From Alphaproteobacteria bacterium (GTDB lineage Bacteria > Pseudomonadota > Alphaproteobacteria > RF32 > CAG-239), in assembly GCA_017475525.1 (NCBI GenBank), contig JAFVFH010000054.1, positions 1 through 50,954 on the forward strand: a DNA stretch of 50,954 nucleotides, in the 5' to 3' direction. This document shows, in pieces, positions 3,031-40,158 of this stretch. The translations under genes and the position numbers were made by a program. Under the pieces are notes generated by a model. The model did no database searches. It was not told the origin of the DNA and was given only the letters and a program-made list of their open reading frames with translations. How positions within the stretch are numbered: position 1 is the first letter of the stretch; the number at the start of each line of letters is the position of its first letter.

Positions 3031-3039
3031 AATTTATAT

Positions 3040-12519: not shown

Positions 12520-13977
12520 ATGACAGAAGAAATTGTTGCAACAAAAAGATTAAAAAGAGAAATTTTGGTGCGTCTGGTCAAGGCATTTATGTCGGACAAT
12601 TTTGAAGAAAATGTGCGATTGATTCCGTATGATATGAGACCAAAGGGAAGCGAAGTGCCTTTCAGGTGCTGTATTTATAAAGAACGTGCGATTTTGCGCT
12701 CGCGCGCTATTGCAGGCCTCGGGTTTGCCATGGAGGAAGATGATGAGCGCACGCTTTTATCTGACTTTGCGCGCAAGGCATTGGAGCGCGAAAGACCGGA
12801 GGAACATCCGCTGACCGTTTTGCAAAATGCGTGCAAAGGGTGTCCGTCTTCTAAAATTTTTGTGACCGAACTTTGTCAGAGCTGCGTGGCAAAGCCGTGT
12901 TTGACGGTTTGCAAGTTTGGGGCGATTGATCATGTGAACGGAAGGTCTGTCATTAATCAGGAAAAGTGCAAAAAATGCGGTATGTGTATGAATGCGTGTC
13001 CGTATCATGCTATTGTCAAGACGATTGTGCCTTGCGAGGAAGCTTGTCCGGTCGGCGCCATTGCTAAAGGTGAAGACGGATTTGCGCATATTGATCATGA
13101 AAAGTGTATCTCTTGCGGTAAGTGTGTGACGGCTTGTCCGTTTGGAGCCACGCATGCCAAAAGCCAGATTATTGACGTTTTAAGGCGCATTAAAGAAGGC
13201 AAAAAAGTGATTGCAATGTTTGCGCCGGCACTTATCGGGCATCTGCCTTGCGGTGCCGAACAACTCAAAGACGCATTCAAAAAGATAGGTTTCTTTGATG
13301 TTTATGAAGTGGCTCAAGGTGCTGATGTGACGGCCAAAACGGAAGCTAAAGATTTTGAAGAACGTCTCAAAGAAGGGGCGTCTTTTATGACAACATCTTG
13401 TTGTGCGGCATATAATGAGCTTGTGAAAAAGCATTTGCCGGAGATGAAACCTTATGTTTCAGATGCCAAAACACCGCTTTACTACACAGCAGAAATTGTC
13501 AAAAAAGAACATCCGGAGGCGGTGACGGTGTTTATCAGCCCGTGTTTTGCAAAACGACGTGAGGTTTTGGACAATCCGAACATCAATTATGTGTTAAATT
13601 TTGAAGAACTCGGTGCTATATTCATTGCTATGGGAATAGAAGTTGACACATGCGAAGAAAAGGAGTTTGCATATAAGAGCTCTAAAGAGGCGCGCGAATT
13701 TGCCGTTTCAGGCGGGGTGGCACGCTCTGTTTTGGCGGCATGGCGCGGCGAACCGGATGCTGTCAAGCCGGTGGTTATTAACGGGCTCAATAAGGAAAGT
13801 TTACGTAATCTCAAAGTTTATGCCAAAACGGGAAAATGCCCGCTCGGCAATCTGGTTGAGGTGGTGTGTTGTGAAGGCGGATGTATTGGCGGAAACGCCG
13901 GCTTAAATACGGTTAAATCCGCACTCAAAAAAGTTGGCGAATATGCTTCAAAGGCTCATTCGCTTGAAAATGAATAA
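12520..13977 (+). CDS. monomeric ferredoxin-dependent [FeFe]-hydrogenase (group B / HfsD-like)
   Basis: Multiple [4Fe-4S] motifs; TTSCC, SPCFAKRRE and CEGGCIGG motifs. Confidence 0.9.
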   Translation: MTEEIVATKRLKREILVRLVKAFMSDNFEENVRLIPYDMRPKGSEVPFRCCIYKERAILRSRAIAGLGFAMEEDDERTLLSDFARKALERERPEEHPLTVLQNACKGCPSSKIFVTELCQSCVAKPCLTVCKFGAIDHVNGRSVINQEKCKKCGMCMNACPYHAIVKTIVPCEEACPVGAIAKGEDGFAHIDHEKCISCGKCVTACPFGATHAKSQIIDVLRRIKEGKKVIAMFAPALIGHLPCGAEQLKDAFKKIGFFDVYEVAQGADVTAKTEAKDFEERLKEGASFMTTSCCAAYNELVKKHLPEMKPYVSDAKTPLYYTAEIVKKEHPEAVTVFISPCFAKRREVLDNPNINYVLNFEELGAIFIAMGIEVDTCEEKEFAYKSSKEAREFAVSGGVARSVLAAWRGEPDAVKPVVINGLNKESLRNLKVYAKTGKCPLGNLVEVVCCEGGCIGGNAGLNTVKSALKKVGEYASKAHSLENE

Positions 13978-17917: not shown

Positions 17918-17946
17918 TTGACTTTTTTCCTTTGGTGTGGCATCAT
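17918..17946 (+). promoter_or_regulatory. promoter of leader A
   Basis: TTGACT-17 bp-CATCAT; same design at 40047-40019 (-) and a decayed copy near 46728-46700 (-). Confidence 0.7.
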
Positions 17947-17951
17947 TAAAG

Positions 17952-18111
17952 TATAACCGAAATGGTTATGGTGTCTAGTTGGCATTTTCGAAACGTATAC
18001 TCCTGCTAACGGGAGTTCTTGATATAAGCATATTTATGACGAATAAAAGAGGCTGCGTTTCGACAGTTAACTAGCTCCCACTTTGGATATTTTCTGAAGT
18101 GATTTTTTTTT
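17952..18111 (+). ncRNA. putative structured leader/attenuator (copy A)
   Basis: Colinear with copy B, with compensatory stem changes; ends in ctcc, hairpin and T9. Confidence 0.75.
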
Positions 18112-18162: not shown

Positions 18163-19422
18163 ATGAGATACAAATTTTTAACAGCTGTCTTAGCAGCCTC
18201 AACAGCCCTATCTGATATAGCCATGGCAACAATTCCCGAAGGTTGTGTTGATAAGGGCGACGGCACTTGCATCTATCGCGAAAAAAATGTGACGTCGCAA
18301 TATGACACCTCAAGCGGATATATCCTTCAAAAAACAGTTTTAAGTGCCGCACAAGGCGGCGAAGGGGTTGGCGTCAGCACCAATGTTTATAACTATAGCT
18401 ATGATGCTAACGGAAATGTGAGCGAACTTTCTCTGACCCAATATCCGGATGGTTCTGATAAAAGCCAAAAAACCGTTGTGCAATACAGCTACGATGAAGA
18501 TAACAATTTGATTTCAGCAACGCGCCAAAGTTATGAAAATTATGACAACCCTAATGTCAACAATTTCGCTTTTAATGAACTGAATATGTTTGACGGACCT
18601 CACATGCTCTATACATCTGAGCCGTCGACAGATCCCTATGGCAACCCGCAGACTTATGTTTATGACACGCACGAAAACGGAAACAAAACAAAAACTTATT
18701 TGTGGGATGAGAATAACGGAGAGGTTTATACATATAATAGCGATGGCATATTGATAGGCTATGGCTATATACAAAACGGCGAAACGAATAATGTCTACAC
18801 ACTCGATAATAACGGTGCGCTGCTGTCCGTTGGCGCTCAAGCTGGAACTGTAATAGACGTCACTTATGATGAAAACGGCGGCTTTTCAGCCTCAGAAAGT
18901 TACGGTCAGTCAAACTCATACAAATTAACCATTGACCCGAACTATACTTTGCCTGACGGGAGAGTCGTCACTTTGCAAACGATGTGGCAGGAAAAAGGAT
19001 GGACAGGAGAACCTTTAGAAACAGTGTCCGCCTTTGCTTATCTTCAAGAAGGCAAAGAGATGATTGTAGACGGCTATACAAATTATGATAAATATGGCAA
19101 TCCGACATACATTCGGATGTACTATTACACAGAAGACGGTCAGCCGGAAAATATAACAAACAAGTATTATTCTTACACCTATGACGAAGACGGACAGATA
19201 TTAACCTGTTCAGAAAGAAATAATTCGAAAGATCCATGGGCGACTTGCAGTGAAAACAGCGGTTCAAACTCGAATGTTTCCGGCGGCGGTACAAATTCGG
19301 AAAATTCGGAAACAAGCGGTTCTTTTGCGCCTACCCGCAATCCAAAACGCATTTATACCGTTGAAGAAGCCGCGGCACTTTCAAAAGAAACAGGCAACAC
19401 CTTCCGTCTTCGTTACAAATAA
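18163..19422 (+). CDS. secreted protein with YD-like repeats, Ser/Asn/Gly linker and conserved C-terminal tag
   Basis: AAGGAG RBS; signal peptide; YSYDANGN, YSYDEDNN and YTYDEDGQ repeats; ends KRIYTVEEAAALSKETGNTFRLRYK. Confidence 0.85.
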   Translation: MRYKFLTAVLAASTALSDIAMATIPEGCVDKGDGTCIYREKNVTSQYDTSSGYILQKTVLSAAQGGEGVGVSTNVYNYSYDANGNVSELSLTQYPDGSDKSQKTVVQYSYDEDNNLISATRQSYENYDNPNVNNFAFNELNMFDGPHMLYTSEPSTDPYGNPQTYVYDTHENGNKTKTYLWDENNGEVYTYNSDGILIGYGYIQNGETNNVYTLDNNGALLSVGAQAGTVIDVTYDENGGFSASESYGQSNSYKLTIDPNYTLPDGRVVTLQTMWQEKGWTGEPLETVSAFAYLQEGKEMIVDGYTNYDKYGNPTYIRMYYYTEDGQPENITNKYYSYTYDEDGQILTCSERNNSKDPWATCSENSGSNSNVSGGGTNSENSETSGSFAPTRNPKRIYTVEEAAALSKETGNTFRLRYK

Positions 19423-20572: not shown

Positions 20573-23500
20573 CTAAAATCTATACTTCAGCCCGAAATCA
20601 AAACGGCTGCGATATTCACTGTCAACATACGATAAGAACCCGCCGTAAATTGACACATCACCTGCATCGTAAGAAAGCGTTGAGCGCAAAACGGCATAAT
20701 CATCACGGCGCTTTTCGTCGCTGATTTTGAATGTGCCGTTCATTCCATTCATTTGAAGCTCCATATCATACGGATTGCCAAATTCGTGATAAAGCATGGC
20801 TCCTGCCATCAATTTAAGCTGATGGTTCTTCGCAATTTTCTTTTCTTTTGAAATATAGGCGCCAAAGCCCAATTCTGCCGAATAAGTTCTCTGATTTGCA
20901 CTCGAAAGGCTGTATTGTTTTGTATCTTCTTTGAGTTTTGTTTGATAAGCCGTTAAATGAACCGCTGTGGCCGGTGAAAGTTCAAAACCACCGAAGGAAA
21001 GCGGATAGCGCACTTCACTTTCAAGTCCGAAGGCGCGTTTTTCAATATGTCCGTCATAGCTTCTGCTCTCATAGCCGTTGCGGTCATATGTGCCGTAGAG
21101 ATACGACATCTTTGGTGAAAACACCATATTAAACCCGTTTTTCTTGAGCTGATACGGCATCAAAAGTTGAAAATTTTTGCTTTCTCTTGAGTTTTTCAGA
21201 TGTCCGTCATCCGAACGCAACTCCGAAATCGCCAAACCGACGCCGAAATGCCCTCCGGCCATATTCGTTCCCGAAAGTGCATATTTCGTGTTTGAACCTC
21301 TGTCTTGAAACACTTTCGGCGCCACTTCACCCGAAAATGAAAATTCCCCGTCTTTCAACGCAAAAAGTTTGCTGTTCAAATCAAAGTTAAGCTCCTTTTG
21401 CATAATCATATCCTCATCGGCAAAGCGCGAAATCACATTTTGTCCCGTCAAATCACGCATGGCATTCTCAACCTCATTCAAACTTGATTTTGTTTTCAAA
21501 TTCGCAAATAGAGCTTCATTATTTTGCATATCATAATTCTTTTCCAAAAAGCTTGCCACCGTGCTGTTTTCAACCACTTCATTGAAATCTTTTTTCGTTA
21601 ATACGACATCGTTTCCTTTAAGCTCAGCGTCAAACAACACCGACTGAGAACTCAAATTCAAAGCGCTGGCATCTGATGTGTCAATTGCATTTAAGAGGGT
21701 ATAATTTTGCTCAAATCCGTTTTTGACCACATCACTTGAAATGCTCAAATTGCCCGTTATCGCAGGCGCACTGAAAGTTCCGTTCTGCGCAAGTGTTACT
21801 CCTTTGCCCAAACTTAATGCTTTTGTTGCGCTCACCAAACCCATATTTTCAAATTCGGCGCCACCTGTTAAATAAATGGCATATCCGCCGTCAGGGGTTA
21901 AACAGCCTGTTGACGTATAAGTCGGATTATCTTCCCAGTTCAGATCAATATTATTAATTCTGAATTGAAATTCGCCCGTGTTTGTGATTTTTGCGCCGTT
22001 TGTGGCATAAATGCCGTATGTTTTTTCTTTTGACGGTCCCGAAACCCAAATGCGTCCGGAGTTTGTGACCTTGCCGCCGTCGCTGTAAATGCCGTATGCG
22101 TTGCCTGTTGTTGACGTTACATTGATTTCATAGCGCTGTGTTGAGTTTTCAATCGTTCCGCCTTTATTATAAATACCATAGGCATCACCGCCCGCACTTT
22201 CAACTTCAAGTCCGCTGGTGTTTGTCAGCGTTGCCGTGCCGCTGTCCGATTGCGTCACATAAATACCAAAAGCATTGCCCGTTCCGCCCGTTGTTTTTGC
22301 AGAAATCACACGCCCGTTTGTCATTGTGCCGTCTTCAACATACGCCCCGTAAACATTGCCCGTTGCACTTTGTGCTTGAACGGAATAAACAAGCGTTGTT
22401 TCGCTGATGTCTTTGATGTTATTGATTGTTCCGCCTTTGGTGTATAAGCCGTATGCATTGCCGGCATCTGCCGATGACGCCACCTCACCGGAATTTTGAA
22501 TTGTCCCTAAAGAATAAAGTCCGTATGTGTTTCCGCTGCCTTGAGAATTGATGACACTGACAACCGAATCAATATACGAATACGTTCCTATTTTATTTTG
22601 ATTATAAATCGTGCCGTTTGTGCCGGATTGGTAAATACCATAAGCCGCACCGTTTCCTTTATTTGAAACATTAATTTCTGAATACACAATTGCTGTCGGT
22701 GATGTTTCTTCCGCACTGCTGTCATCAAACTCGGCCGTATAAATATCATTCCCGCCGAAAATACCGTAAACCCTGCCGTCGCCGACATTGTTAATTGAAA
22801 TTGTGCCGATGGCTTTGGCGGAACCTTGTGAAGCAATATCCGAAACAAGAATACCCGAGCCCTTGAGCTCCGCATAAACATTATAAATCGTATCCGCATT
22901 GTTTGAATAGAGCCCGTAAACCGTTCCGTCACTGTTGTTGTTGATGGAAATCGAAGATGTTTTGTTCATCACCAAAAAGTTTTCTTCAACTTTCTTCGTG
23001 TCCGTTTTTAAAACATCGCCGATCTCCGTGCTGTTATTGTCATAAACAACGTCATTAATCACATGTCCGGCAGTTTCACCGTTAAAATAATAGGCATTCG
23101 AATCTTTCACATAACCCTTCATGGTTGTGCCGTCCGTATCATACCAAATCTTGTTGCCGTCATCGTCATACTTATAATCCGGCTCCGTCACGGTTGCCGT
23201 TGTCGGCTCAATTGAAAAATATCCGTTTGCAAACTTATCCTGATCCAAACGATAATCATGCGGTGTTTGCGCCGCGTCATAAAACAGACCGTAAACATCA
23301 GCATAATTGTTGTTTGTGAGCGTTAATGTGCCTGCTTCATTGTAGTTTGAGTTAATGTCCGGATTACCGTACACATCTTTGCTTTGTTTTTTAACGCACA
23401 TGCCGGTGCTGTCCTTGCCGTATCCGTTGATACACTCATCGCAAAGCGTTCCGCCGTAACCGTTTTCGCACACACATTTTCCGGCCTGTTGCGTTCCGTG

Positions 23501-24142
23501 CGCACATTCAAGCGTTTTATAACATAAATCTGTGCCGTAGTTGCCGTATCCTGCTGCACAGGTATTGCATTTTTCGCCCGCATACCCCGTATCGCAAACA
23601 CAAACACTTTCCGACCAATGTCCGTGCACACAATTCGGATCCGTGCTTGAGCCGCCACCGCCTCCGCCGCCTCCGCCACCGAGCGCAATGGCTGTTCCGG
23701 CACCTGCCGCCACAACACCGGCACCGATTAAAGCCTTTGTTTTCCAGCTCATAGAGCTCATCTTAGCGGCATTTGCAGCAACCGCCGTATCCATATTACG
23801 CACCGGATTGATGACCACCGATTGCATAAATTCGCGATATCCGTTAATTTCCCACGTGCAGGGATGTGAAGGGTTTGCTCCTGATTGCAAAAATGATTTA
23901 TAGGCTCTTCTGTCGCGGTTTCTTGCCGCCACGCACAACCCCGTGTCACCGCTTGAGTTGACCGAATCGATATTAAGCCCGCGCGAACGTGCCGCATTGA
24001 TTGCCGAAACATCACCTCTTTGAGCAAGCGCATAAAGTGCACGAAAGCTTTCGGGAGAAAGAGCCTGCAAATAAGCCTCTGCCCTAAAGCTATAAAAACT
24101 TAAAACACAAGCAGCAACAAAACAAAAACGCCTCAAAATCAT
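20573..24142 (-). CDS. autotransporter-like surface protein (ankyrin-like, EGF-like, beta-helical passenger, beta-barrel)
   Basis: Signal peptide; GDTGLCVAA..GANP; poly-Gly; CxCxxGYxGxxC repeats; AYGIY repeats; C-terminal GLKYRF. Confidence 0.8.
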   Translation of the reverse strand: MILRRFCFVAACVLSFYSFRAEAYLQALSPESFRALYALAQRGDVSAINAARSRGLNIDSVNSSGDTGLCVAARNRDRRAYKSFLQSGANPSHPCTWEINGYREFMQSVVINPVRNMDTAVAANAAKMSSMSWKTKALIGAGVVAAGAGTAIALGGGGGGGGGGSSTDPNCVHGHWSESVCVCDTGYAGEKCNTCAAGYGNYGTDLCYKTLECAHGTQQAGKCVCENGYGGTLCDECINGYGKDSTGMCVKKQSKDVYGNPDINSNYNEAGTLTLTNNNYADVYGLFYDAAQTPHDYRLDQDKFANGYFSIEPTTATVTEPDYKYDDDGNKIWYDTDGTTMKGYVKDSNAYYFNGETAGHVINDVVYDNNSTEIGDVLKTDTKKVEENFLVMNKTSSISINNNSDGTVYGLYSNNADTIYNVYAELKGSGILVSDIASQGSAKAIGTISINNVGDGRVYGIFGGNDIYTAEFDDSSAEETSPTAIVYSEINVSNKGNGAAYGIYQSGTNGTIYNQNKIGTYSYIDSVVSVINSQGSGNTYGLYSLGTIQNSGEVASSADAGNAYGLYTKGGTINNIKDISETTLVYSVQAQSATGNVYGAYVEDGTMTNGRVISAKTTGGTGNAFGIYVTQSDSGTATLTNTSGLEVESAGGDAYGIYNKGGTIENSTQRYEINVTSTTGNAYGIYSDGGKVTNSGRIWVSGPSKEKTYGIYATNGAKITNTGEFQFRINNIDLNWEDNPTYTSTGCLTPDGGYAIYLTGGAEFENMGLVSATKALSLGKGVTLAQNGTFSAPAITGNLSISSDVVKNGFEQNYTLLNAIDTSDASALNLSSQSVLFDAELKGNDVVLTKKDFNEVVENSTVASFLEKNYDMQNNEALFANLKTKSSLNEVENAMRDLTGQNVISRFADEDMIMQKELNFDLNSKLFALKDGEFSFSGEVAPKVFQDRGSNTKYALSGTNMAGGHFGVGLAISELRSDDGHLKNSRESKNFQLLMPYQLKKNGFNMVFSPKMSYLYGTYDRNGYESRSYDGHIEKRAFGLESEVRYPLSFGGFELSPATAVHLTAYQTKLKEDTKQYSLSSANQRTYSAELGFGAYISKEKKIAKNHQLKLMAGAMLYHEFGNPYDMELQMNGMNGTFKISDEKRRDDYAVLRSTLSYDAGDVSIYGGFLSYVDSEYRSRFDFGLKYRF

Positions 24143-30643: not shown

Positions 30644-31308
30644 AAACAGCGCGGTATGAGCGTTCTTACACAAAAGAAGCTGACTTGTTGAAAGCTTATC
30701 GCAAAGCACAAAACAGAGCCGAATATCTTTCAGATGTTGATGATAAGCTTTTGTCTTATGGCAATGTGATTGCTTTTTGCGCCGCTTCAAAAAAATGTTT
30801 GCAAAAAGAAAGCACAAAGCGCAATCAAATTTTGTTTTGGACATACCATCATATCGGCGATTTGTTCTTAAAAAAGAACCTTGAAAGGTTTGAACCCTCA
30901 AACAACGCTTTTGCTTTAGAGGCTTATCAAAATGCGCTTGAGCTTTCAAAAACAACAGGCGAACAAACGGATACCTTAAAAAAAATGCGTGATGTTTATC
31001 TGTTGTTAGAAGATGAAAACGGCTATTTTCAAACTTCGGCAGAAATGGCAAGGCTTGTTGATGATGCCTTAAAAGCACAAGCTTTTTTGGAGTTGGCACA
31101 AAATGCAACATCTGCTAAACAGGAGGCTTATTTTTTGGAACAAGCCTTAAAATTTGTGAACAAAGAAGATATTTCTTTTTTGCAAAAATGTCGGCAGACG
31201 GTTGTTTTGTGCGAACGGCTCTATGAGATTTATCAAAAAATAGGAGATTTCAATAAAGCTTTGGAATTTAAAAACATTGAACAACAGACCGAAAGGCTTA
31301 TAAACTAA
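30640..31308 (+). CDS. helical/TPR-like hypothetical protein
   Basis: Long ORF with TPR-like patterns; TTG start inferred from overlap with the upstream stop. Confidence 0.65.
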   Translation: MKTARYERSYTKEADLLKAYRKAQNRAEYLSDVDDKLLSYGNVIAFCAASKKCLQKESTKRNQILFWTYHHIGDLFLKKNLERFEPSNNAFALEAYQNALELSKTTGEQTDTLKKMRDVYLLLEDENGYFQTSAEMARLVDDALKAQAFLELAQNATSAKQEAYFLEQALKFVNKEDISFLQKCRQTVVLCERLYEIYQKIGDFNKALEFKNIEQQTERLIN

Positions 31309-31335
31309 AAAGGTCGATTAAAAAATCGACCTTTT
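31308..31335. terminator. bidirectional terminator
   Basis: aaaaggtcgatt-aaaa-aatcgacctttt between convergent genes. Confidence 0.75.
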
Positions 31336-31349
31336 GGTTTGAGATGTTT

Positions 31350-31661
31350 CTAGGCATTGTCCCTGTCATAGATCTCTTTGTCGATAAGGTGCGGGAGCTG
31401 AAAATACAATCCGTTCCAGACGACATCGACTTCGTCGCCGACCTTGAGACCTTCTTTGTCAAAGCCGTAGATGCCTTGATAGAGTTTGCCATCCTTCTCG
31501 AAGGAACACAGGAAGCAACCCTCTTCATCCTCAAAGTGATAGAGGAGCTTGGCTTTACCGACAAATGTGCTCGGGGTGCTTGTTTTACTGCGGCCAAAAA
31601 TCATGATGACCAGAGCAATCACGAAGATTGCTACAAAAATAATTGTGATAATTTTTTCCAT
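31350..31661 (-). CDS. small membrane-anchored hypothetical protein
   Basis: N-terminal TM helix plus a short beta-rich domain. Confidence 0.65.
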   Translation of the reverse strand: MEKIITIIFVAIFVIALVIMIFGRSKTSTPSTFVGKAKLLYHFEDEEGCFLCSFEKDGKLYQGIYGFDKEGLKVGDEVDVVWNGLYFQLPHLIDKEIYDRDNA

Positions 31662-31889
31662 ACGTATTGGGGTTAAAATTATATAAAACTATGGTCAGTT
31701 TACATTTTTTTTGTCAAAAGTCAAACAAAAAATGATTTCTTTTTGCTTTATTTGTGTTTTTTTAATTTGCAGAGGAGTGGCTGTTTTGTTTGTGCGCCAA
31801 GAGCGCTGAGGGGGAGTTTTTATTTTTATATCAAAAGATATATCATTTTTTGCTTGCCATTTTGATGAAAATAGACTATCTTTAGTATT

Positions 31890-32073
31890 GGATGGTTGAA
31901 ATAGCCGTCTATGGACCAGAAATCCATTACAAGAGGTCGTGTGCAAGACCTAAAAATGCATATTCCAGTTTTTGGACTGGAAGGTGGCTGAATAAGGAAC
32001 TTCCATTCCAAATAGGTTACGCTATCATCTTGTAATAGTTTCTGCTTCCAGTCGCTTTTATAGCGATTTTTTT
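31890..32073 (+). ncRNA. putative structured leader/attenuator (copy C)
   Basis: Follows TTGCCA-17-TATCTT (31854-31882). GAAAT-loop hairpin; cagaaa..ttacaaga / tcttgtaa-tag-tttctg; ggtc-gtgtgcaa-gacc; tgaataagg; cttcc, terminator and T-run. Confidence 0.65.
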
Positions 32074-32104
32074 GTTGAAACAAATTTTGGAAAGGAAACT
32101 TAAT

Positions 32105-32743
32105 ATGAAAAACAATCAAAATGGTCGTTCAATGGTCGAAATGCTCGGCGTTTTGGCTATTATCGGTGTGTTGTCAGCAGGTGGTTTGGCAGGCTATTCA
32201 AAGGCTATGTTCAAACACAAATTAAACAACACAATGGATCAACTCACAATGCTTGTGACTAACATCCGCACGATGTATGGCACGCAAGACAGCTACAAAG
32301 ACTTGAGCAACGTTCAAGCCGTTAGTTTGGGCATCGTCCCTGCCGCTATGAAGGGGACTGCTAAAGCAGCAGTTGCACCTCAGGGCAAAGAAGGTGAGGA
32401 TGGCTATGTAGCCGGTAGTGCTGCCAGCCAAGAACTGGTAAACCCGTTCAAAGGCACTGTGACAATTGAGCCTTCCGGCGCAACAGCAAAAGGTGATAAC
32501 AGGGCATTTACAGTGACGTATGCCGGTCTTCCGACAGAGGCTTGTATTGCTCTTGTGACAGCCGATTGGGGCGCAGGTGCTGGTTCGGGCTTTATCGCCG
32601 TTGCCGCAGGCAGTGAAAAAATTGAAGATGCTCTTGTCGGAAGCGGTCTCGGTGGTCGTGCTGAAGGTGCGGCTTATTCCGTTGGCAATGCTATCAATGT
32701 TTGTGGCTCGACAACGAACACAGTTGCATTGAAGTTCTATTAA
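32105..32743 (+). CDS. type IV pilin (PilS/type IVb-like globular domain)
   Basis: Prepilin-like N-terminus GRSMVEMLGVLAIIGVLSAGG; NPFKG, GLPTEAC and C-terminal C..NT motifs. Confidence 0.85.
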   Translation: MKNNQNGRSMVEMLGVLAIIGVLSAGGLAGYSKAMFKHKLNNTMDQLTMLVTNIRTMYGTQDSYKDLSNVQAVSLGIVPAAMKGTAKAAVAPQGKEGEDGYVAGSAASQELVNPFKGTVTIEPSGATAKGDNRAFTVTYAGLPTEACIALVTADWGAGAGSGFIAVAAGSEKIEDALVGSGLGGRAEGAAYSVGNAINVCGSTTNTVALKFY

Positions 32744-32785
32744 TTTCCATTTTCAAAAATTTTTTTCAAGTTTGTAAACCAACCA

Positions 32786-32817
32786 GCCGCACATTCTCGG
32801 ATGTGCGGTTTTTTTTT
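32786..32817 (+). terminator. intrinsic terminator
   Basis: gccgcacat-tctcgg-atgtgcggt followed by a T-run. Confidence 0.8.
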
Positions 32818-32895
32818 GAAAAACGAAGAGGCTTGTGTGCACTTAAAAAAGGGAGGGTGGATTGAAAAAGGCGAGAGGGACTTTTGGGGGAAAAG

Positions 32896-34236
32896 TTATT
32901 TGCCGATGCAGAAGGAGCCGAAAATTTTATCAAGGACTTCATCAATTTCAATCTGCCCCGTGATTTTGCCGAGTGCGCGAGCAGCAAGGCGTATGTCTTC
33001 GGCAGAAAGCTCAATTTCTTTATCAAAGTTGAAATTTGAGAGGTTTTCAAGGCAATCATTTAAGCATTGACGGTAGCGTTCACGGGTAATCAATGCTCCG
33101 GAATTTGAACCGATGTTGTTTTGAATACGGATTTTGAGCAAATCAAACAATTCCGGCACACCCTCTTTTGTTTTGGCAGACAAGATAAAACAACCTTGAT
33201 TTTTCAAATCCACCATTTGTGCGGGGGTTAATTTGTCGGCTTTATTTGCAACAAGCAAGATATTATTTTTATGTCGTTTTATCAAATCACTGAAAATGTC
33301 GGGCGAATCGACCGACGCGTCAAAAAGCGCAAAGATAAAATCGGCATCTTCAATTTTTTCGCGAGCAATTTCAATGCCCTGTTGTTCTATAGTATCAGTG
33401 CTTTCACGCAAGCCAGCCGTGTCGGTCAAAATGACGGGATAACCTGAAATGTCAAGATGGACATCTATGGCATCTCGCGTGGTGCCGGGGATGTCGGAAA
33501 CAATGACGGCGTTTCTTTCAAGAACGGTGTTAATCAAACTCGATTTGCCGGCATTGGTCGGACCGGTCAAAACAACGCGAAAACCTTCACGCAAGCGCTC
33601 TCCGACAGATGATTTTAAGTGGCTTTTTATGTCTTCTTTTAGTTTAAATACGGTGTTCAGATTCTTTTCAATGACGGAATCGGGGATATTTTCTTCCGGA
33701 AAATCAATGTATGCTTCTAAATATGCGTAAACTTCCAAAAGCTGTTCGCGCCAAGAGGAGTATAAGTTTTTTAAGGTGCCTGACATTTGGCGCAGAGCTT
33801 GTTTTTGTTGTTCAAACGTTTCGGCGTCAATTAAATCGGCTAAGCCTTCAGCCTCGGTCAAATCCATTTTTTGATTGTAAAAAGCACGCTTTGAAAATTC
33901 GCCCGGTTCGGCAAGGCGAAAATCTTCAATTTCAGAAAGGTTCTTCAAAAGCGATGATAAAACGGCTTTTGAGCCGTGGCACTGGATTTCAACAATGTCT
34001 TCACCCGTAAAAGAGTGCGGCGCACTAAAATACAAAACAAGTGCATGATCCAAGGGGTCTTTTGTTTGTTTGGTATAAAGTGTGGTCAGATAAGCATGGC
34101 GCGGTTTGATTGTTCGGATATCAATGTTTGTGAGCGCCTTGATGGCGTTCAGGGCGTTTTGTCCCGAAATGCGGATAACGGCAACGCCTGATTTGCCGTA
34201 TACTGTTGAAAGCGCATAAATGGTTTGTTTTTTCAT
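32896..34236 (-). CDS. mnmE: tRNA modification GTPase MnmE
   Basis: SFTGED, GPTNAGKSS, GTTRD and FCIGK motifs. Confidence 0.98.
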   Translation of the reverse strand: MKKQTIYALSTVYGKSGVAVIRISGQNALNAIKALTNIDIRTIKPRHAYLTTLYTKQTKDPLDHALVLYFSAPHSFTGEDIVEIQCHGSKAVLSSLLKNLSEIEDFRLAEPGEFSKRAFYNQKMDLTEAEGLADLIDAETFEQQKQALRQMSGTLKNLYSSWREQLLEVYAYLEAYIDFPEENIPDSVIEKNLNTVFKLKEDIKSHLKSSVGERLREGFRVVLTGPTNAGKSSLINTVLERNAVIVSDIPGTTRDAIDVHLDISGYPVILTDTAGLRESTDTIEQQGIEIAREKIEDADFIFALFDASVDSPDIFSDLIKRHKNNILLVANKADKLTPAQMVDLKNQGCFILSAKTKEGVPELFDLLKIRIQNNIGSNSGALITRERYRQCLNDCLENLSNFNFDKEIELSAEDIRLAARALGKITGQIEIDEVLDKIFGSFCIGK

Positions 34237-34279
34237 GCTTGCTCCTTATCAATATTTTGCGTGAATTTGAAGGGCTGAG

Positions 34280-34783
34280 CTATTTAATCACTTCGTCTTC
34301 ATAGACGCCGAAAACATTTTTCTTTGATACCCAACCTTCGACACCTTCAAATTTTATGAGGCAAAATTCGCTCTTGTTCGGGCATTTTTTGATTTCGCCG
34401 ATGACGCCGTCTTCAACCTTGGCAATCACTTTTGAATCATATTTCGGAGAATGGTAAATATTGTTTTCGCCGGGGGTGATGATTTTGATGAAACGGCGGC
34501 CGGATAAACGCGTTTTATGAATCCATGAAACATCGCCTTCCCAATCACGCACCTGACGCCATAGCTCAAATTCGTTGATAATTTCAAGCGGAGCGCCTTT
34601 TTGTTTATATATCCATTCAATCGGATATTTTGTGCCGGGGCCGGAGCGCGCATTGATGTTATCCGCGCGGATGGATACCATGCGTGGCAAAGCGAGCCCG
34701 CTTTCGCTTGAATCGGTTGTTTCGGCATGAGTCGGTTGAAGGCTCAATAATAAAATGGCTATAAAGCTTAAAAATGCTTTCAT
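34280..34783 (-). CDS. secreted tandem bacterial SH3 domain protein
   Basis: Signal peptide; LPRMVS, NARSGPGTKYPIEW and GWV motifs. Confidence 0.85.
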   Translation of the reverse strand: MKAFLSFIAILLLSLQPTHAETTDSSESGLALPRMVSIRADNINARSGPGTKYPIEWIYKQKGAPLEIINEFELWRQVRDWEGDVSWIHKTRLSGRRFIKIITPGENNIYHSPKYDSKVIAKVEDGVIGEIKKCPNKSEFCLIKFEGVEGWVSKKNVFGVYEDEVIK

Positions 34784-34849
34784 TTTTCTTCCTTTTGAGT
34801 TATTTTGGCACTATATTAAAGCAAAATATTTAAAAAAAAGGTAAAAGAG

Positions 34850-35959
34850 ATGCAACTTCTTGAGGTGATAAAAGATTTAATTTCGTTTAAGACCATAACG
34901 GGAAATGCAGAGCAAATTGATGCGTGCTTGAGCTATATCGAGCGGTTGCTTAAACCGACGGGTGCTGTTGTTGAGATATGTCGCCATGAAAATGCTTCGC
35001 CTGTTATTTTTGCAAAAAATACACAAACAGAGCATTTTGATGTTTTGGTTTTGGGACATTTGGATGTGGTGCCCGCCGATGATAAGATGTTTGAACCGTA
35101 TCTTAAAGACGGAAAACTTTACGGGCGCGGAACGCTTGATATGAAATCGTTTGCGGCGGTGGCTGTCAATTCAATGAGTCAAGTGATGAAAGAAAACTTG
35201 CCCTTAAAATTCGGGTTTGTTTTATCAACTGATGAAGAAGAAGGGAGCAAAAGTTTGGAAGAATTTTTGAAAAATCATCCGAACTTGAAGGCGGATATTG
35301 TTTTAGACAACGATGTGGGCGGTGATATATATAAAATTGTGACGCGCTGTAAAAATCCGGTTTATGTTAAGCTCAAGGCTAAAGGTTCGGCGGCGCACGG
35401 TTCAACGCCATGGGAGGCACTGGACGCCAATGAACAGCTTTTTAAAACGTGGCAAAATATCAGAAAAATGTATCCGGCTTTTGATTTGAAAACGGGAAAG
35501 CCGAAAGATGTATGGATTGATACGCTCCATTTTGCAACGATTGAAGGCGGTAAGGTTTCAAACATTATTTCAGATGAGGCAACGGCTTTGCTTGATTTCA
35601 GATTAACGGAAAAATCAAGTGTTCAAGATTTGAAGCAAAAACTCTCAGGTTTGATGGAAGAGGGGGTTTCGTTTGAGGTGACATATCAAAGCATTCCGGT
35701 TGTGGTTGATGAACAAAATCCGGTTTTGCTTGCCTATAAAAAATTGGCGGAAGATGTTTTGGAAAAAACAATCGAATTTGAATATATGGGTGGGGCAACC
35801 GACGCGCGTTCGCTTTATGAGCGTGGGGCAACGGTGATTATGCACTCGGGCACCGGCAAGGGAATGCACGCCAAAGGTGAATATGTGGAGCTCAAAAGTG
35901 TGGAGCAAATCGCCGATATTCAGATGAAGTTTTTGCTCAAATTGGCAGAAAAAAAATGA
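34850..35959 (+). CDS. M20 family metallopeptidase (ArgE/DapE-like)
   Basis: GHLDVV, GRGTLDMK, DEE, GATDAR and H..GE motifs. Confidence 0.9.
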   Translation: MQLLEVIKDLISFKTITGNAEQIDACLSYIERLLKPTGAVVEICRHENASPVIFAKNTQTEHFDVLVLGHLDVVPADDKMFEPYLKDGKLYGRGTLDMKSFAAVAVNSMSQVMKENLPLKFGFVLSTDEEEGSKSLEEFLKNHPNLKADIVLDNDVGGDIYKIVTRCKNPVYVKLKAKGSAAHGSTPWEALDANEQLFKTWQNIRKMYPAFDLKTGKPKDVWIDTLHFATIEGGKVSNIISDEATALLDFRLTEKSSVQDLKQKLSGLMEEGVSFEVTYQSIPVVVDEQNPVLLAYKKLAEDVLEKTIEFEYMGGATDARSLYERGATVIMHSGTGKGMHAKGEYVELKSVEQIADIQMKFLLKLAEKK

Positions 35960-36396
35960 AAATACATATTTTAGCAATCGGCAAATGCAAGCACGGCTCG
36001 CCGGAGGAAATGCTTATCAAAGAATATCAAAAAAGGATGAGCTGGGATTTGGTCATCAAAGAAAAAGACAATGATGTCCAAGAAAAAGAAGCTGAGTTTT
36101 TGCTTAAAAATATTCCGGTCGGGGCAAAGGTTGTGGTTTTGGATGAACGCGGCGAAAATATGAAAAGCCTCGATTTTGCAAAGAAAATAGGCGATTGGCA
36201 GATGAGCGGCATCTCGGATATTTGTTTTTTAATCGGCGGGGCGGACGGGCATTTGGACAAAGTGCGTGAAAGAGCGGATTTGTTGCTCGCTTTTGGCAAA
36301 CTCACAATGCCGCACATGTTAATACGCGCGGTTTTGACAGAGCAAATTTACCGCGCGCAAACAATCTTAAATAACCACCCGTATCACAGGCAATAA
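35956..36396 (+). CDS. rlmH: 23S rRNA (pseudouridine1915-N3)-methyltransferase
   Basis: IGGADG, TMPH, EQIYRA and HPYH motifs. Confidence 0.97.
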   Translation: MKIHILAIGKCKHGSPEEMLIKEYQKRMSWDLVIKEKDNDVQEKEAEFLLKNIPVGAKVVVLDERGENMKSLDFAKKIGDWQMSGISDICFLIGGADGHLDKVRERADLLLAFGKLTMPHMLIRAVLTEQIYRAQTILNNHPYHRQ

Positions 36397-36409
36397 GATT
36401 TTTATTTTT

Positions 36410-36883
36410 CTATTCACATTTCCAATATTGGCCCGTGTCATCGTTGCAGAATTTCAACGTTGTGCCACCGCTACAACCGGGCATTGTATAGCTTGTACAC
36501 GGTCCGTTCGGAACACAGGTAGCAATAGGGAGTTTGCTGGTAAATCCTTCGGCTTTGCAATGCTCATCAGTTGTTTGTTCGCCGCAATAGTAATAGCCAT
36601 AGCAATTATCTGTGCTATGCGGGCGTGCGCCGCACTCGGTGAGCGTGTATTTATAGCCGGCAGGGCAACACACTTTATAGTAGTTGCCATCATCAGGGCA
36701 CGGATTAACCAAAGCGCCGGCGCAGGTTGTGTATGTATAACCGGCTTGAATGCAACTTTTGTTTGATGTGTTCGGTTTAACACCGACACTTTCGGGGGCC
36801 TCTGCAAGGAAGGTGACGCCGGCCTCAGCCTTCAAAACAAAAGCAATGCTTAAGCAAAAAGCGGTCAATATCAATTTCTTCAT
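36410..36883 (-). CDS. secreted Cys-rich protein
   Basis: Signal peptide from MKKLIL after an AAGGAG RBS; many Cys residues. Confidence 0.75.
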   Translation of the reverse strand: MKKLILTAFCLSIAFVLKAEAGVTFLAEAPESVGVKPNTSNKSCIQAGYTYTTCAGALVNPCPDDGNYYKVCCPAGYKYTLTECGARPHSTDNCYGYYYCGEQTTDEHCKAEGFTSKLPIATCVPNGPCTSYTMPGCSGGTTLKFCNDDTGQYWKCE

Positions 36884-36967
36884 GGCTTTTCTCCTTTTGC
36901 AATAATCCATATTGAGTTTATTATACTTCTGTTTTTTAAGAAAATCAAATAAAAAGAAATGAATTTT

Positions 36968-38779
36968 TTATGACATTGTTGAAAGCATGATTTTTTGGAA
37001 AATCTGTGCGGGGATTTCGCCACCGGTGACGTTTTTCATCGGTGAATTATCGTCATTTCCGACCCAGACGGCAACAACATATTGTTTTGTAAAACCGACA
37101 AACCAAGCGTCACGATAGTCTTGCGAAGTCCCTGTCTTGCCGGCGACGAATGCGGGAAGTTTGGCGCGCTTTCCTGTGCCGGAATTGACAACATTTTCAA
37201 GCATTTTTGTGATTTTTTGAACTGTTTTCTCATCTAAGACTCGGATAGGCTCATCTAAGGTGCGTTCATAAAGTTGTTTGCCGTCTTTGGAATATATTTC
37301 CGAAATGGCATAGGGCCATGCGGCATATCCGCCGTTTGCGATGGAAAGATAGGCGGTTGCCATATCAATCACTTTGACTTCCGATGAGCCGAGCGCTAAC
37401 GACGGAATTTTCTTTAATGGGGTGGTGATGCCCATCTTTTTGGCGTTTTTGATGATGTCATTTAAGCTGAAATGGCGGCTCAAGTTAACGGTTGCAAGGT
37501 TCAGAGAGTTGGTAAAAGCAAAATTTAAGCTCACATCACCGTAGTGCTTTTTGTTATAATTTTCGGGTTTCCATTTGCCGACGGTTACGGGTGTGTCGGA
37601 GATGATGTCATCCGGCTCAAAACTGTGTTGAAGCGCAGTAATGTAAACAAAAGTTTTGAAGGCAGAACCCGGTTGACGCAAGGCTTGTGTGGCGCGGTTG
37701 AACTGGTTTTTTTGATAATTGATGCCACCAACCAAGGCTTTGATGGCGCCTTTATAATCCAAAATAACAAGAGCGCCTTCCGTGACGTTGTTTTTGGCAT
37801 TGTCAGCAACGGTTTGACGCAAAATTGTTTCTGCTTTTTGCTGGAGATCTTGATCTAAGGTTGTGCTTACATAAATATCTTGGTCGCGCTCGCCGATGTA
37901 GTCATTGACCTCAGAATAAACCATGTCGGCAAAGTGTTTTGCCCCTTCAACTTTGAAGGAGGTTGTGTCATGAAGGGGTTCTTTTTTGGCTTTTTCAAAC
38001 TCGCCTTCGGTGATGGTGCCGTGTTTGAGCATTATTGCCAAAACTGTTTGAGCGCGGTCGGAGGCGTTCTTTTTGCTGTAAATCGGGTTGTAACGTGACG
38101 GGGCTTTAAGCATTCCCGCAATAACCGCCGCTTCTTTTAGGCTTAAGTCGCGTGAGGATTTGCCGAAATATTTATTTGCCGCCGCTTCAATACCGTAAAC
38201 GCCGGCGCCTAAATAAACACGGTTCAGATAGAGCGTTAAAATCTGCTCTTTTGTGAATTTTTTTTCAAGCCAAAAAGAAATCAAAAGCTCTTGAACCTTG
38301 CGCTTAACGCTTTTTTTGGGAGTTAAGAAGAGGTTTTTTGCCACTTGTTGTGTGATGGTGGAAGCGCCTTGGGCATAGCGTTTTAAGAAGATGTTGGCGA
38401 TGGCGGCACGGGTAAAGCCGATGATGTCAAAGCCAAAGTGAGCATAAAAACGGCGGTCTTCAACGTCAATAATGGCAGCAGGGACATAATAGGGCAAATC
38501 TTGTAAATAAACAACCGATGAAAAGCTGTTGCCGAATGTTTGAATTTCGTTGCCGTTTTCGGCGATGACGGTTGTTGACGGTTGGCGCGTTTTTGAAAGC
38601 GCAACTTCAATATCGGGCAAAGTTGCGTAGCAATACAAAACATATGACGCTATGAGCGCAAAAATTGAGAAAGCGCTGACAAGAAAGACTTTAATCAGTT
38701 TTTTCTTAAATGTTTTTTTTGTGTTTTTTTTGCGTTTTTTAGGGGTGCGCTTTGATGTTTTTTTTGCTTTTTGAACCAT
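36968..38779 (-). CDS. class A penicillin-binding protein (PBP1A family)
   Basis: EDRRF, GASTITQQ, SAFK, SLN and KTGT motifs; start reassigned to 38779. Confidence 0.93.
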   Translation of the reverse strand: MVQKAKKTSKRTPKKRKKNTKKTFKKKLIKVFLVSAFSIFALIASYVLYCYATLPDIEVALSKTRQPSTTVIAENGNEIQTFGNSFSSVVYLQDLPYYVPAAIIDVEDRRFYAHFGFDIIGFTRAAIANIFLKRYAQGASTITQQVAKNLFLTPKKSVKRKVQELLISFWLEKKFTKEQILTLYLNRVYLGAGVYGIEAAANKYFGKSSRDLSLKEAAVIAGMLKAPSRYNPIYSKKNASDRAQTVLAIMLKHGTITEGEFEKAKKEPLHDTTSFKVEGAKHFADMVYSEVNDYIGERDQDIYVSTTLDQDLQQKAETILRQTVADNAKNNVTEGALVILDYKGAIKALVGGINYQKNQFNRATQALRQPGSAFKTFVYITALQHSFEPDDIISDTPVTVGKWKPENYNKKHYGDVSLNFAFTNSLNLATVNLSRHFSLNDIIKNAKKMGITTPLKKIPSLALGSSEVKVIDMATAYLSIANGGYAAWPYAISEIYSKDGKQLYERTLDEPIRVLDEKTVQKITKMLENVVNSGTGKRAKLPAFVAGKTGTSQDYRDAWFVGFTKQYVVAVWVGNDDNSPMKNVTGGEIPAQIFQKIMLSTMS

Positions 38780-38840
38780 TGATATTCTCCATGTTAAGGG
38801 AGAGTATATGTGCAAATGTCTTAAAAAATTATCAATATGG

Positions 38841-38938
38841 GGGCTTGTATAATGGCTCATCTGAAGTCATTTTTTCCTTGTGCATGCTTTTTGTACACGG
38901 CGTCAAAAATGACGGGTATTTGACTCATTTCCAAACCC
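38841..38938. repeat. REP/RPE-like palindrome, family 2
   Basis: gtataatggct...tgtacac.gcg...gtattt...catt framework shared with 4849-4940; the inner stem differs (gtcattttt/aaaaatgac). Confidence 0.65.
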
Positions 38939-38953
38939 TTGGATTTTATAGCT

Positions 38954-39829
38954 TTATTTATAGCGCAGTTTGAAGGTGTTGCCTGTTTTTTTAGAAACAA
39001 GTGAGGCTTCTTCTATCGTATAAAAACGCCTGTTCTCTCGTTTGCCGGATGTTGTGACAAGTTTTCCTTTATTGTCAAACACATAGGTCACACCATTGAC
39101 TTGTTTTGTTGTGGCTTTGATTGATTTGAGCTCGCCATAACCTGCCGCTTCTAAATTTGCGTCGCATTTTTTTGTATCTCCCGTGCAATAGATTTTGAGA
39201 TTTTCTAAATCAACACGCATATTTTCACCGTGCTCGGTAAAAATATGTCCTAAGGCGGTTTTGTCGCTGATGGTTAGGGTTAAAAGACTTTCACATGCGC
39301 TTAAAGTTGCAGAACCTAAGTTTGTAACAGAATCAGGAATAAAAACGTCTGTCAGTGACGTTCCGCGAAAAGCCTCAGCAATGTCTGTCACGGAAGATGG
39401 AATATTAATTTTTTTTAAGTCGGACCAGTTAAAAGCCGCAGTATCAATTTTGGTCACGGAATCCGGAATAACAACTTCATTAAGTATAGCGCCATAAAAA
39501 GCATTAGCGCTGATAGTTGTTATTGATGAAGGGATTTGAAGTATGCCCTCATCCTTAATACCATGAAAAGCTTGCCAACCTAAATCTTTGATGGTGTCTT
39601 CAATCACAATATTACGGATATCTTGACCACGCCATGGTGCCAATATTCCTGTACCATTAGACCAGCTTCCGATATTGCCATTATTACCTGTGCCGCGAAT
39701 CGTTAAAGTGCCATTGACAATTTGGTATTCGCAATTTGCCGTATTGCCCTTGGCATCTGTGCCGCAAGCTTCCCACGCGTTGGCGTTAAAACTTGCAAGT
39801 ATTGCTAAAATCAAAACTGTTTTTTTCAT
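38954..39829 (-). CDS. secreted BspA-type (LRR_5) protein with conserved C-terminal tag
   Basis: Signal peptide; IPSSITTI, IPDSVTKI and IPSSVTDI repeats; ends RRFYTIEEASLVSKKTGNTFKLRYK. Confidence 0.9.
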   Translation of the reverse strand: MKKTVLILAILASFNANAWEACGTDAKGNTANCEYQIVNGTLTIRGTGNNGNIGSWSNGTGILAPWRGQDIRNIVIEDTIKDLGWQAFHGIKDEGILQIPSSITTISANAFYGAILNEVVIPDSVTKIDTAAFNWSDLKKINIPSSVTDIAEAFRGTSLTDVFIPDSVTNLGSATLSACESLLTLTISDKTALGHIFTEHGENMRVDLENLKIYCTGDTKKCDANLEAAGYGELKSIKATTKQVNGVTYVFDNKGKLVTTSGKRENRRFYTIEEASLVSKKTGNTFKLRYK

Positions 39830-39850
39830 AAATTTGACTCCTTTCTAAAT

Positions 39851-40013
39851 AAAAAAATCCGTTCGAGATAAACAAAACGGAGGAGGAGCTCAAAGAACTG
39901 TTGGTGCACAGCTTGTCTTATTCGACGCAAAATTGACGCTTATATCGACTACTCCTCATCAAGGAGTTGAACACCAAAGATGTCTTTGAAACACCGCAAC
40001 CATTTTGGTTACG
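39851..40013 (-). ncRNA. putative structured leader/attenuator (copy B)
   Basis: Homolog of copy A with compensatory changes; promoter TTGACT-17-CATCAT at 40047-40019; terminator tccgtt/aacgga plus U7. Confidence 0.75.
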
Positions 40014-40158
40014 CTTTTATGATGCCACATCAAACGTTAAAAGTCAAATAAAAAAGGTTTTAATTATGTGTTTTTTGAGCTTTTCATATTAAAAAAGTTT
40101 GTTATATTGTTAAATATGGAAGCGGCATATATGTGCCTGATGGCACAACGCCGGCTTT

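Follow-up and report, generated by a model that had tools for sequence, protein, structure and literature searches.

A portable C-terminal tag on exported adhesin-like proteins and its likeness to type IVb pilin C-termini in a gut alphaproteobacterial lineage

Genes of the window and a portable C-terminal tag

The window analysed here, a stretch of 50,954 nucleotides, is one contig (C86) of an alphaproteobacterial assembly (G000) that comprises 1.44 Mb in 87 contigs, with 41% G+C and 85% completeness, and the DNA matches to the window come from gut metagenomes, no RNA data set being among the matches listed for positions 31000-40100. It encodes a full-length type IVb-like pilin and two exported proteins, cargoes A and B, which share a C-terminal tag (Table 1). 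The pilin opens with the leader MKNNQNG, whose final glycine precedes the cleavage site (G, then RSMVEMLGVLAIIGVLSAGG), and the mature protein, as read from the sequence, begins RSMVEML, with Glu5 in place and a hydrophobic helix. Curated models of the prepilin motif score just under their cut-offs (TIGR02532, 15.8 vs. 16.3; PF07963, 18.9 vs. 21.2), and Pfam matches the protein to PilS (PF08805, 49.6 bits with a cut-off of 22) and to Bundlin (PF05307, 42.4 bits). Its AlphaFold2 model (pLDDT 87.5, pTM 0.79) retrieves the solved type IVb pilins CofA, PilS and TcpA in Foldseek (E 1.5e-5 to 6.9e-4), the matched structures including 9iuf, 3fhu, 3s0t and 8uhf (E 1.5e-5 to 7.5e-5), and folds the last 22 residues into a helix (187-193) and a terminal strand (199-205, mature numbering), the arrangement that an earlier note on this DNA had ascribed to the region. 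The C-terminal disulfide pair is present, C141 and C194 being nearly invariant across 79 homologues, in which the C-terminal consensus reads EG..Y.V..AI..C.....NTV..KFY. The pilin departs from its class in one respect: type IVb pilin leader peptides are long, 15-30 residues according to PMC2500206, whereas that of the window pilin has only seven.

Table 1. Features of the window, with coordinates counted from its first nucleotide
Feature	Position	Strand	Basis
Type 1 5' leader of A, ending in a hairpin and T-run	17937..18107	+	nhmmer, E 4.3e-37
Cargo A, 419 aa: signal peptide, YD/RHS-like repeats under curated cut-offs, C-terminal tag	18163..19422	+	Pfam/NCBIfam
Tag of A (KRIYTVEEAAALSKETGNTFRLRYK)	19345..19419	+	65.7 bits to tag model
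Upstream region of the window pilin, a different leader	31800..32104	+	type 1/type 2 models, E 0.32/1.1
Full-length type IVb-like pilin gene, 212 aa, 2 Cys	32105..32743	+	Pfam, AlphaFold2 model, Foldseek
Last 22 codons of the pilin and stop	32675..32743 (codons 32675-32740, stop 32741-32743)	+	translation; helix 187-193 and terminal strand 199-205
Cargo B, 291 aa: signal peptide, BspA-type LRR_5 domain (80.8 bits), C-terminal tag	38954..39829	-	Pfam
Tag of B (RRFYTIEEASLVSKKTGNTFKLRYK)	38957..39031	-	62.9 bits to tag model
Type 1 5' leader of B	39853..40028	-	nhmmer, E 2.1e-35

The tag shared by A and B has the 25-residue consensus KRIYTVEEAxKVSKPTGNTFKLRYK, directly followed by the stop codon, and is found in G000 in 104 copies by regular expression, in 115 by a six-frame search with a 27-column profile and in 117 with a broader profile. 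Against 1.84 billion proteins the tag profile matched 368 cluster representatives at E ≤ 0.001, and in the 150 of these 368 matches that were listed the match extends to the last residue or, in two cases, to the next-to-last one. E, A, G, N, F and Y are invariant in all 104 copies, 101 of which end in K and the other three in R, and column counts show a strongly basic tail with an alternating F-x-L-x-Y pattern. Because these residues are near-invariant, synonymous sites are scrambled (six codons are used for each of Leu, Arg and Ser, and identical residues share a codon in only 47.5% of cases) and the DNA 3' of the stop codons is unrelated between copies, selection acts on the tag peptide and not on a DNA repeat. 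A signal-peptide heuristic was passed by 78 of the 90 complete tagged ORFs, nine more being signal-peptide-like by eye and three resembling fragments, and the mature N-termini are not conserved. Among 20 randomly drawn tagged proteins, 15 carry LRR_5, one an RHS family above and one an RHS family below the cut-off, and three match no family. LRR proteins of the BspA type are, as a rule, adhesins that stay attached to the cell.

No Pfam or NCBIfam family matched the tag at E ≤ 1, and Pfam searches found no barrel family in the cargoes. Four motif strings of the tag had no match in the literature text searched, and searches on pilin complementation brought up nothing on the tag. Hydrophilic, 25 residues long and matching no curated model, the tag is unlike PEP-CTERM, LPXTG, GlyGly-CTERM and the T9SS CTD, which feature either a membrane-spanning helix with a basic tail or a β-sandwich of ~80 aa; it also differs from the outer-membrane β-signal, in which an aromatic last residue ends a barrel domain, by ending in K or R on cargoes with no barrel. 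Together, these data show that the tail of A and B is a lineage-specific, portable C-terminal tag carried by ~115 Sec-exported, mostly BspA-LRR adhesin-like proteins.

The pilin C-terminus, the short pilins and the tag

As the earlier note had observed, the last 22 residues of the pilin align with the tails of A and B free of gaps and flush with the stop, with 7/22 identities to each when counted from the translations. The HMM-HMM comparison that it had suggested gave the right register but a weak match: hhalign of 22 tags against 79 pilins recovered exactly the proposed pairing (tag 10-31 on pilin 184-205), at an E-value of 0.0096, a probability of 4.3% and a score of 17, which 5 of 300 column-permuted tag alignments also reached (the reversed tag scored 10.4). 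The window pilin was absent from the hits of an HMM of the 104 tags run against all G000 ORFs (--max, E ≤ 100); with 26 columns drawn from near-identical copies this model is very narrow, and it was not taken as the sole test. Scored by an ungapped, stop-flush PSSM built from the tags, the pilin reached 4.0 against a background of -28.8 +/- 7.3 (z 4.5) from 1121 long ORFs, pilins and full-scoring tags excluded; four of the 1121 outscore it, three of them variant tags and one a non-tag, and among 20000 shuffles of the pilin tail the fraction attaining the observed score was 0.0001. Paralogues of the window pilin on contigs C15 and C47 gave z-values of 3.2 and 2.4.

The spacing of the tag is likewise that of the pilins, with Y at -5, V at -3, A at 0, Ser in place of the pilin Cys at +4 and N at +9, then T, F/V, any residue, L, K/R and F/Y, and variant tags such as RRIYTVEEASFVSGKKNTVRLRYK and its like in G000 or ...SGKTNTVTIRYR in G011 resemble the pilin's CGSTTNTVALKFY even more closely; each genome holds a mixture of variants. 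Judged by sequence alone, the resemblance between tag and pilin exceeds chance only modestly, and it is to the pilin family as a whole and not to one gene. Since the window pilin is itself full length, it is the template that the tag resembles and not the adaptor; its orthologues in tag-less species have an unchanged C-terminus.

Pilins truncated before the last helix and strand, which the earlier note had envisaged, do occur in G000. There are three, on contigs C26, C57 and C9, with 147-163 mature residues and no Cys, each stopping a few residues past the counterpart of the full pilin's GFIAVA strand (GLQEVLIN in the short pilin) and thus lacking the C-terminal region that in full pilins holds helices 167-172 and 187-193 and strand 199-205. 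The PTEAC site of the full pilins reads PKEAS, PKEAV or PQKVA in these proteins, their N-terminus reads GRSMVEM with Glu5 kept, and Pfam matches them to PilS. With the C26 short pilin as query there were 577 pilin hits at E ≤ 1e-5, the best of which include proteins of 147-179 aa, and the early end is common to all 31 short pilins fetched from these best hits. Folded alone, the C26 protein is modelled with less confidence than the full pilin (pLDDT 72.7 vs. 87.5, pTM 0.58 vs. 0.79): residues 141-169 have pLDDT values of 53, 45 and 40, GLQEVLIN does not form a strand, and Foldseek with this model matches PilS only (E 0.036). The neighbourhoods of the short-pilin genes hold a Hint-like secreted protein, a small Cys-rich secreted protein, an exbB-like gene and rseP-bamA-lpxD-fabZ, in which cluster the C26 gene sits; these neighbours pointed to no further partner. 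The tagged genes are scattered in G000, and none lies beside any of the three.

Co-folding of residues 33-169 of the C26 short pilin with the 32 C-terminal residues of A, from alignments of depth 33 and 22, respectively, gave ipSAE values of 0.66, 0.61 and 0.68, the runs sharing at least 80% of their contacts with a partner pLDDT of 66-69. Of the three controls the best reached 0.03: two used unrelated 32-mers (0.03 and 0.01), and the third replaced the pilin with an unrelated protein (0.00). Of 80 solved complexes 58 reach the pass mark applied, as do 2 of 110 mismatched pairs; this calibration is approximate only, given that user-made alignments were supplied. Residues 25-31 of the tag (NTFRLRY) contact both pilin residues 118-126 (SFEVVFDQL) and 149-152 (EVLI), which places the predicted tag strand between two pilin strands, and the tag helix contacts residues 130-139 and 47-55. 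Furthermore, the pLDDT of the pilin chain is 69-73 with the tag and 59-61 with the unrelated peptides. In the sheets of solved type IVb pilins the C-terminal strand is central. Since a discontinuous strand order is, moreover, described as a hallmark of type IVb pilin sheets in PMC4834066, we take the C-terminal strand of this class to be internal. The pairing of a truncated pilin with the tag raised in the earlier note passes in the computation. This means that the prediction handles the tag as the piece which the short pilin lacks, and it is short of proof that both bind; the score may reflect solved type IVb pilin structures memorised by the model, as two halves of a known fold can pass in this way.

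Distribution, pilus machinery and shared leaders

The search for tag and short pilin covered 61 genomes: G000, 11 members of the same genus, 25 of other genera in the family and 24 of other families. A narrow tag profile matched in ten of these, all within the genus and with 7 to 115 copies each, and exactly these ten also have a short pilin of the C26 type (E ≤ 1e-20, 161-193 aa frames), the remaining genomes giving only weak hits, to full-length pilins. Two congeners, G003 (86% complete) and G009 (99% complete), gave no tag in the profile search and no short pilin. In a DnaE tree of 10 of the 12 genus members and four outgroups (G005 and G008, with fragmentary or absent DnaE, were left out, and the G011 sequence is 45% filled), G003 and G009 group together (99/97), and the sister of this pair comprises all eight tag-bearing species included, themselves joined at a node with 85/85 support. 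Because the two tag-less species form a single sister clade, the co-occurrence of tag and short pilin within the genus amounts to a single event, and the count of genomes overstates it. A 1189-aa ORF of the window (20573-24142) had been considered as species marker and was dropped as variable and multi-copy in favour of DnaE.

A further case lies outside the genus. G015, which belongs to another genus and is separated in the tree by the tag-less G013 and G014, has three divergent tags, RRFYTPAEAAAVVEEGTGNTVEITF and RTHYTPPEAAAAMPDKNAKYSIKIDF, ending one LRR protein and two YD-repeat proteins, and a short pilin of its own that is Cys-free, 132 aa long and ends in ...DWGAKNISINNK; both could have arrived by one joint transfer. 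The phylogenetic profiling suggested in the earlier note came out accordingly across these genomes: no tag was found without a short pilin, and all ten tag-bearing members of the genus as well as G015 have both. A borderline match in G017 (E 0.005) does not correspond to any tag-like ORF end and was counted as no tag. In a sample of 13 of the shortest pilins from six tag-less genera, all have at least two Cys apart from one ORF that is cut by the end of its locus and has one, and the complete ones keep the terminal helix and strand. Five tag-less or low-tag relatives have 0, 0, 0, 1 and 1 LRR_5 genes.

The pilus itself is much older than the tag, given that the pilin family is present in all 36 other genomes of the taxonomic family and that the secretin is conserved in tag-less relatives (64-86% identity). 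In G000 an R64/TCP-like type IVb set lies on contig C79, with a TcpQ-like protein, a secretin (the only one found in this 85% complete genome), PilO (PAP_PilO), a T2SSE ATPase, a T2SSF platform protein and a PilS-like pilin, and a prepilin peptidase gene is on contig C73. The genome holds ~25 pilin paralogues, which are nearly the same at the N-terminus and diverge widely in their globular parts.

Many tagged genes are preceded by one of two leader families, for which Rfam gave no match at gathering scores or at E ≤ 5. The type 1 leader, ~170 nt long, has 86 copies in G000 by nhmmer, followed on the 3' side by 51 tagged genes, 8 pilins and 11 other genes (two of which read as variant tags and one as a pilin), with 16 copies at or off contig ends. 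Type 2, ~240 nt long, has 56 copies, leading into 31 tagged genes, three pilins (the C57 short pilin included) and nine others, of which four are variant tags, the remaining 13 being at contig ends. The earlier note had placed all three genes of the window in one leader family; A and B do share type 1, and the pilin, whose upstream region neither model matches, falls outside it. Its own leader recurs strongly only once, on C20, and there are a few weak copies, including one that precedes the C9 short pilin. The occurrence of the same leader families indicates that the cargo genes share regulation with part of the pilin repertoire, one short pilin included.

A docking model, its precedents and its rivals

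In light of these results, we propose a model to which we give an even chance: the tag would be a docking tag that imitates the last helix and strand of the lineage's type IVb pilins, and the tagged protein would be carried by the pilus. Its receptor would be the small set of short, Cys-free pilins, which retain the helix for polymerisation at the N-terminus. Once in the periplasm, the strand of the tag would insert between two strands of the short pilin's sheet, with the tag helix lying where the pilin's own helix would otherwise sit, and the fold would be complemented in trans without a disulfide, the tag presenting Ser at the position of the pilin's second Cys and the short pilins Ser or Val at that of the first. 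Two more speculative steps follow: the two-piece pilin of cargo and short pilin may be mounted by the R64/TCP-like machinery of C79, and the cargo may be displayed on the pilus, most likely at its tip, or be exported by it. Were every subunit to bear a cargo of 200-700 aa, the filament would not fit through a secretin, so that a tip location alone seems workable.

The evidence for the pairing of tag and short pilin is all computational. The core of the earlier proposal, a cargo that donates a pilin-like helix and strand to a truncated pilin, came through these computations, with the profile match as its weak part. Several observations count against the model: the tag-pilin sequence likeness is weak, the co-fold may draw on memory, the co-occurrence within the genus is one event, three short pilins would have to serve ~115 cargoes, the tagged genes are scattered and not beside the short pilins, and the latter keep Glu5, unlike PilK.

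Two familiar arrangements offer partial analogies. The PilV shufflon of the R64 thin pilus swaps PilV C-termini by DNA inversion; the proposed system would resemble it in combining R64-like type IVb machinery with an exchangeable adhesive end, and would differ in that the exchange takes place at the protein level, via a common plug. In chaperone-usher pili an incomplete subunit fold is completed by a strand of the neighbouring pilin or of the chaperone, and the completion of a subunit by a strand of another protein is proposed here as well; the fold, the machinery and the polarity are unrelated.

We rate as the nearest known mechanism, and the tag system as a possible variant of it, the trans β-strand complementation of PilC/PilY1 and PilK. 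As described in PMC12918778, the extreme C-terminal strand of PilC/PilY1 complements minor pilins of the PilK family in trans at the type IVa pilus tip, and GspK, a homologue of PilK, carries the complementing strand in cis. Measured against that account, the points of likeness are that the tag donors are Sec-exported non-pilins with a predicted strand at the extreme C-terminus, that the short pilins lack a strand which their homologues carry in cis (GspK there, the full-length pilins here), that the donor strand lies inside the acceptor sheet, here in silico only (ipSAE 0.66), and that the cargo is proposed to be held on the filament, as the adhesin is there. Foremost among the differences is the number of donors, ~115 per genome and mostly LRR proteins; in addition, the short pilins are type IVb-like by their Pfam matches (PilS/Bundlin) and keep Glu5, which the PilK/GspK family lacks, the donated piece would be a helix plus strand of ~22 residues and not one of 6-10, the cargoes are LRR_5 or RHS-like with no β-propeller, and the donor genes are scattered and not beside minor pilin genes.

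The parallel drawn in the earlier note was TcpF/CofJ, which gives way to PilC/PilY1-PilK, with its C-terminal strand complementation (PMC12918778), as the closer case. According to PMC9565799, an N-terminal peptide of TcpF/CofJ with a key aromatic residue binds a minor-pilin trimer, hooking into a cleft of this trimer; the minor pilin is large and has three domains, and each system has a single cargo. The proposed system would be similar in bringing a Sec-exported soluble protein onto a type IVb pilus via contact with a minor pilin; it would differ from that description in that the signal is a tag at the C-terminus, which by prediction becomes part of the pilin fold, and in having many cargoes.

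The docking model has to be weighed against three other readings. The first, which we consider unlikely, is that the tag serves as a sorting or anchoring signal for other envelope machinery or a surface polymer, be it a BAM/TAM-type β-signal-like strand or a basic LPS anchor, its pilin likeness being then a generic pattern of capped helix, turn and amphipathic strand. The weak similarity of tag and pilin and the very basic tail with its F-x-L-x-Y alternation would suit such a signal, and so would the fact that the tag, the LRR expansion and the short pilin share one branch, so that any other genes gained there could include the true receptor; the C26 short pilin lies in the bamA- and lpxD-containing cluster, which may be coincidence. 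Against this reading, the tag belongs to no Pfam or NCBIfam family, its last residue is K or R in 104/104 copies and not aromatic, and the cargoes have no barrel domain; moreover, the short pilin co-folds with the tag at 0.66 but with unrelated 32-mers at no more than 0.03, the Cys-to-Ser changes on the tag and short-pilin sides match, and G015 independently has both partners.

In the second reading, docking would be transient, and the type IVb machine would act as a type II secretion-like piston that releases the cargo to the medium. We consider this decidedly unlikely; most cargoes are of the BspA-type LRR kind, which is usually cell-bound. PMC9565799 does describe TcpF and CofJ as secreted by type IVb pili via a minor-pilin contact, yet PilC/PilY1 is, according to PMC12918778, kept at the tip by the same device as is proposed for the tag. 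The single secretin found in G000 would accord with release, whereas the burial of a central strand in the co-fold suggests a stable attachment and not a releasable one. Finally, we regard as highly improbable a third reading, in which the tag is a module for oligomerisation or capping that acts on other tags or on the protein bearing it, and the short pilins are nothing more than compact minor pilins of the ordinary kind. In its favour, type II secretion commonly has short pilins that lack disulfides, and the C26 protein alone is still nearest to PilS (E 0.036). Against it, the passengers joined to the tag have unrelated folds (LRR_5 in 15 of the 20 sampled, RHS/YD repeats, or no family), which makes an intramolecular role unlikely, and the last 30 residues of the C26 protein are unconfident when it is folded by itself.

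Returning to the docking model, a bolder extension of it, which we hold only tentatively and think less likely than not, is a 'shufflon' at the protein level, in which one type IVb pilus would have more than 100 interchangeable tip adhesins per genome, each plugging into a strand-deficient pilin, and the choice among them would be made by two terminator-bearing families of leader RNA. The common pilin-mimic tag would be the non-covalent plug of such a system, and the leaders precede the cargo genes and several pilin genes. If true, the docking model would amount to a modular arming of the pilus, in which ~8% of the coding capacity of a tiny genome could be displayed on one filament, and strand complementation in trans, described so far for type IVa pili with a single adhesin each, would be extended to pili of type IVb and to an entire repertoire of adhesins. 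The tag and its receptor, of ~25 and ~130 residues, would also constitute a natural pair usable for pilus display. For the organisms themselves, the model would explain adhesin variation in uncultured gut Alphaproteobacteria with genomes of 1.2-1.5 Mb.

Pilin paralogues and palindromic insertions

About 25 pilin paralogues in this genome share a near-identical N-terminus (GRSMVEMLGVLAIIGVLSAG), and their globular parts are highly divergent and often cysteine-rich, with four to eight cysteines. In other genera of the family (genomes G013 and G018) there are up to about 50 matches, without any copy of the 25-residue C-terminal tag. The paralogue on contig C47 adjoins a 327-aa T2SSE-type ATPase and looks frameshifted, its C-terminal ...NSVALKFY piece lying in a different frame. 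A palindromic repeat, translated as ...PPPPYLPPLNRAKGAKGED..., is inserted at the 5' ends of the C26 and C63 pilin genes, where it has duplicated the prepilin motif; the same palindrome recurs upstream of several tagged genes, and another small palindrome (catcctga...tcgggat type) also occurs frequently.

As for the cysteine-free short pilins, the C26 gene is flanked by fabZ and an exbB/tolQ-like gene, with the outer-membrane biogenesis cluster rseP-bamA-lpxD-fabZ immediately upstream, and the C57 gene is overlapped by one whose secreted product lacks the tag, matches Hint (intein-like) weakly and contains both a Cys-rich part and a long stretch rich in Gly, Glu and Ser.

Two families of 5' leader

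Two long leader families, of approximately 170 nt (type 1) and 240 nt, are present in 86 and 56 copies, respectively, and together make up about 2% of the 1.44-Mb genome. Both lie 5' of tagged genes and of several pilin genes, both terminate in a hairpin plus T-run, and neither has a family in Rfam; they look like attenuators or antitermination targets. By BLAST, type 1 copies number 12 and 11 in genomes G001 and G006 and one in tag-less G009, and are absent from G003 (tag-less, same genus) and G014 (another genus).

Other genes of the window

A paralogue of the 1189-aa ORF lies on contig C46, relatives carry multiple incomplete copies of it, and neither G008 (tag-bearing) nor G009 has a match. 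The ORF looks like a member of an untagged family of large, variable surface proteins. The two [FeFe]-hydrogenase-like genes and the bifunctional AdhE point to this alphaproteobacterium being an anaerobe that lives by fermentation.

Coordinates of the features discussed
Feature	Position	Strand	Remark
rpsB leader match (Rfam)	window 2924-3036	+	45.4 bits; gathering score 40
[FeFe]-hydrogenase-like genes (two) and bifunctional AdhE	window 9383-11092, 12520-13977, 14001-16607	+	
5' leader type 1	window 17937-18107	+	hairpin and T-run at end
5' leader type 1	window 39853-40028	-	hairpin and T-run at end
1189-aa ORF	window 20573-24142	-	weak EGF_laminin match only
Secreted Cys-rich protein, 166 aa	window 36410-36910	-	no family
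Pilin paralogues	window 32105-32743; contigs C15, C18, C22, C23, C26, C31, C46, C47, C50, C58, C63, C66, C70, C73		
Pilin paralogue	C47:13806-14336 and following frame		apparent frameshift
Pilin genes with palindromic repeat	C26:13144-14109; C63		
Short pilin gene	C26:4526-5032 (locus L051)	-	
Secreted-protein gene by short pilin	C57 (locus L034:3510-4853)	+	overlaps short pilin end
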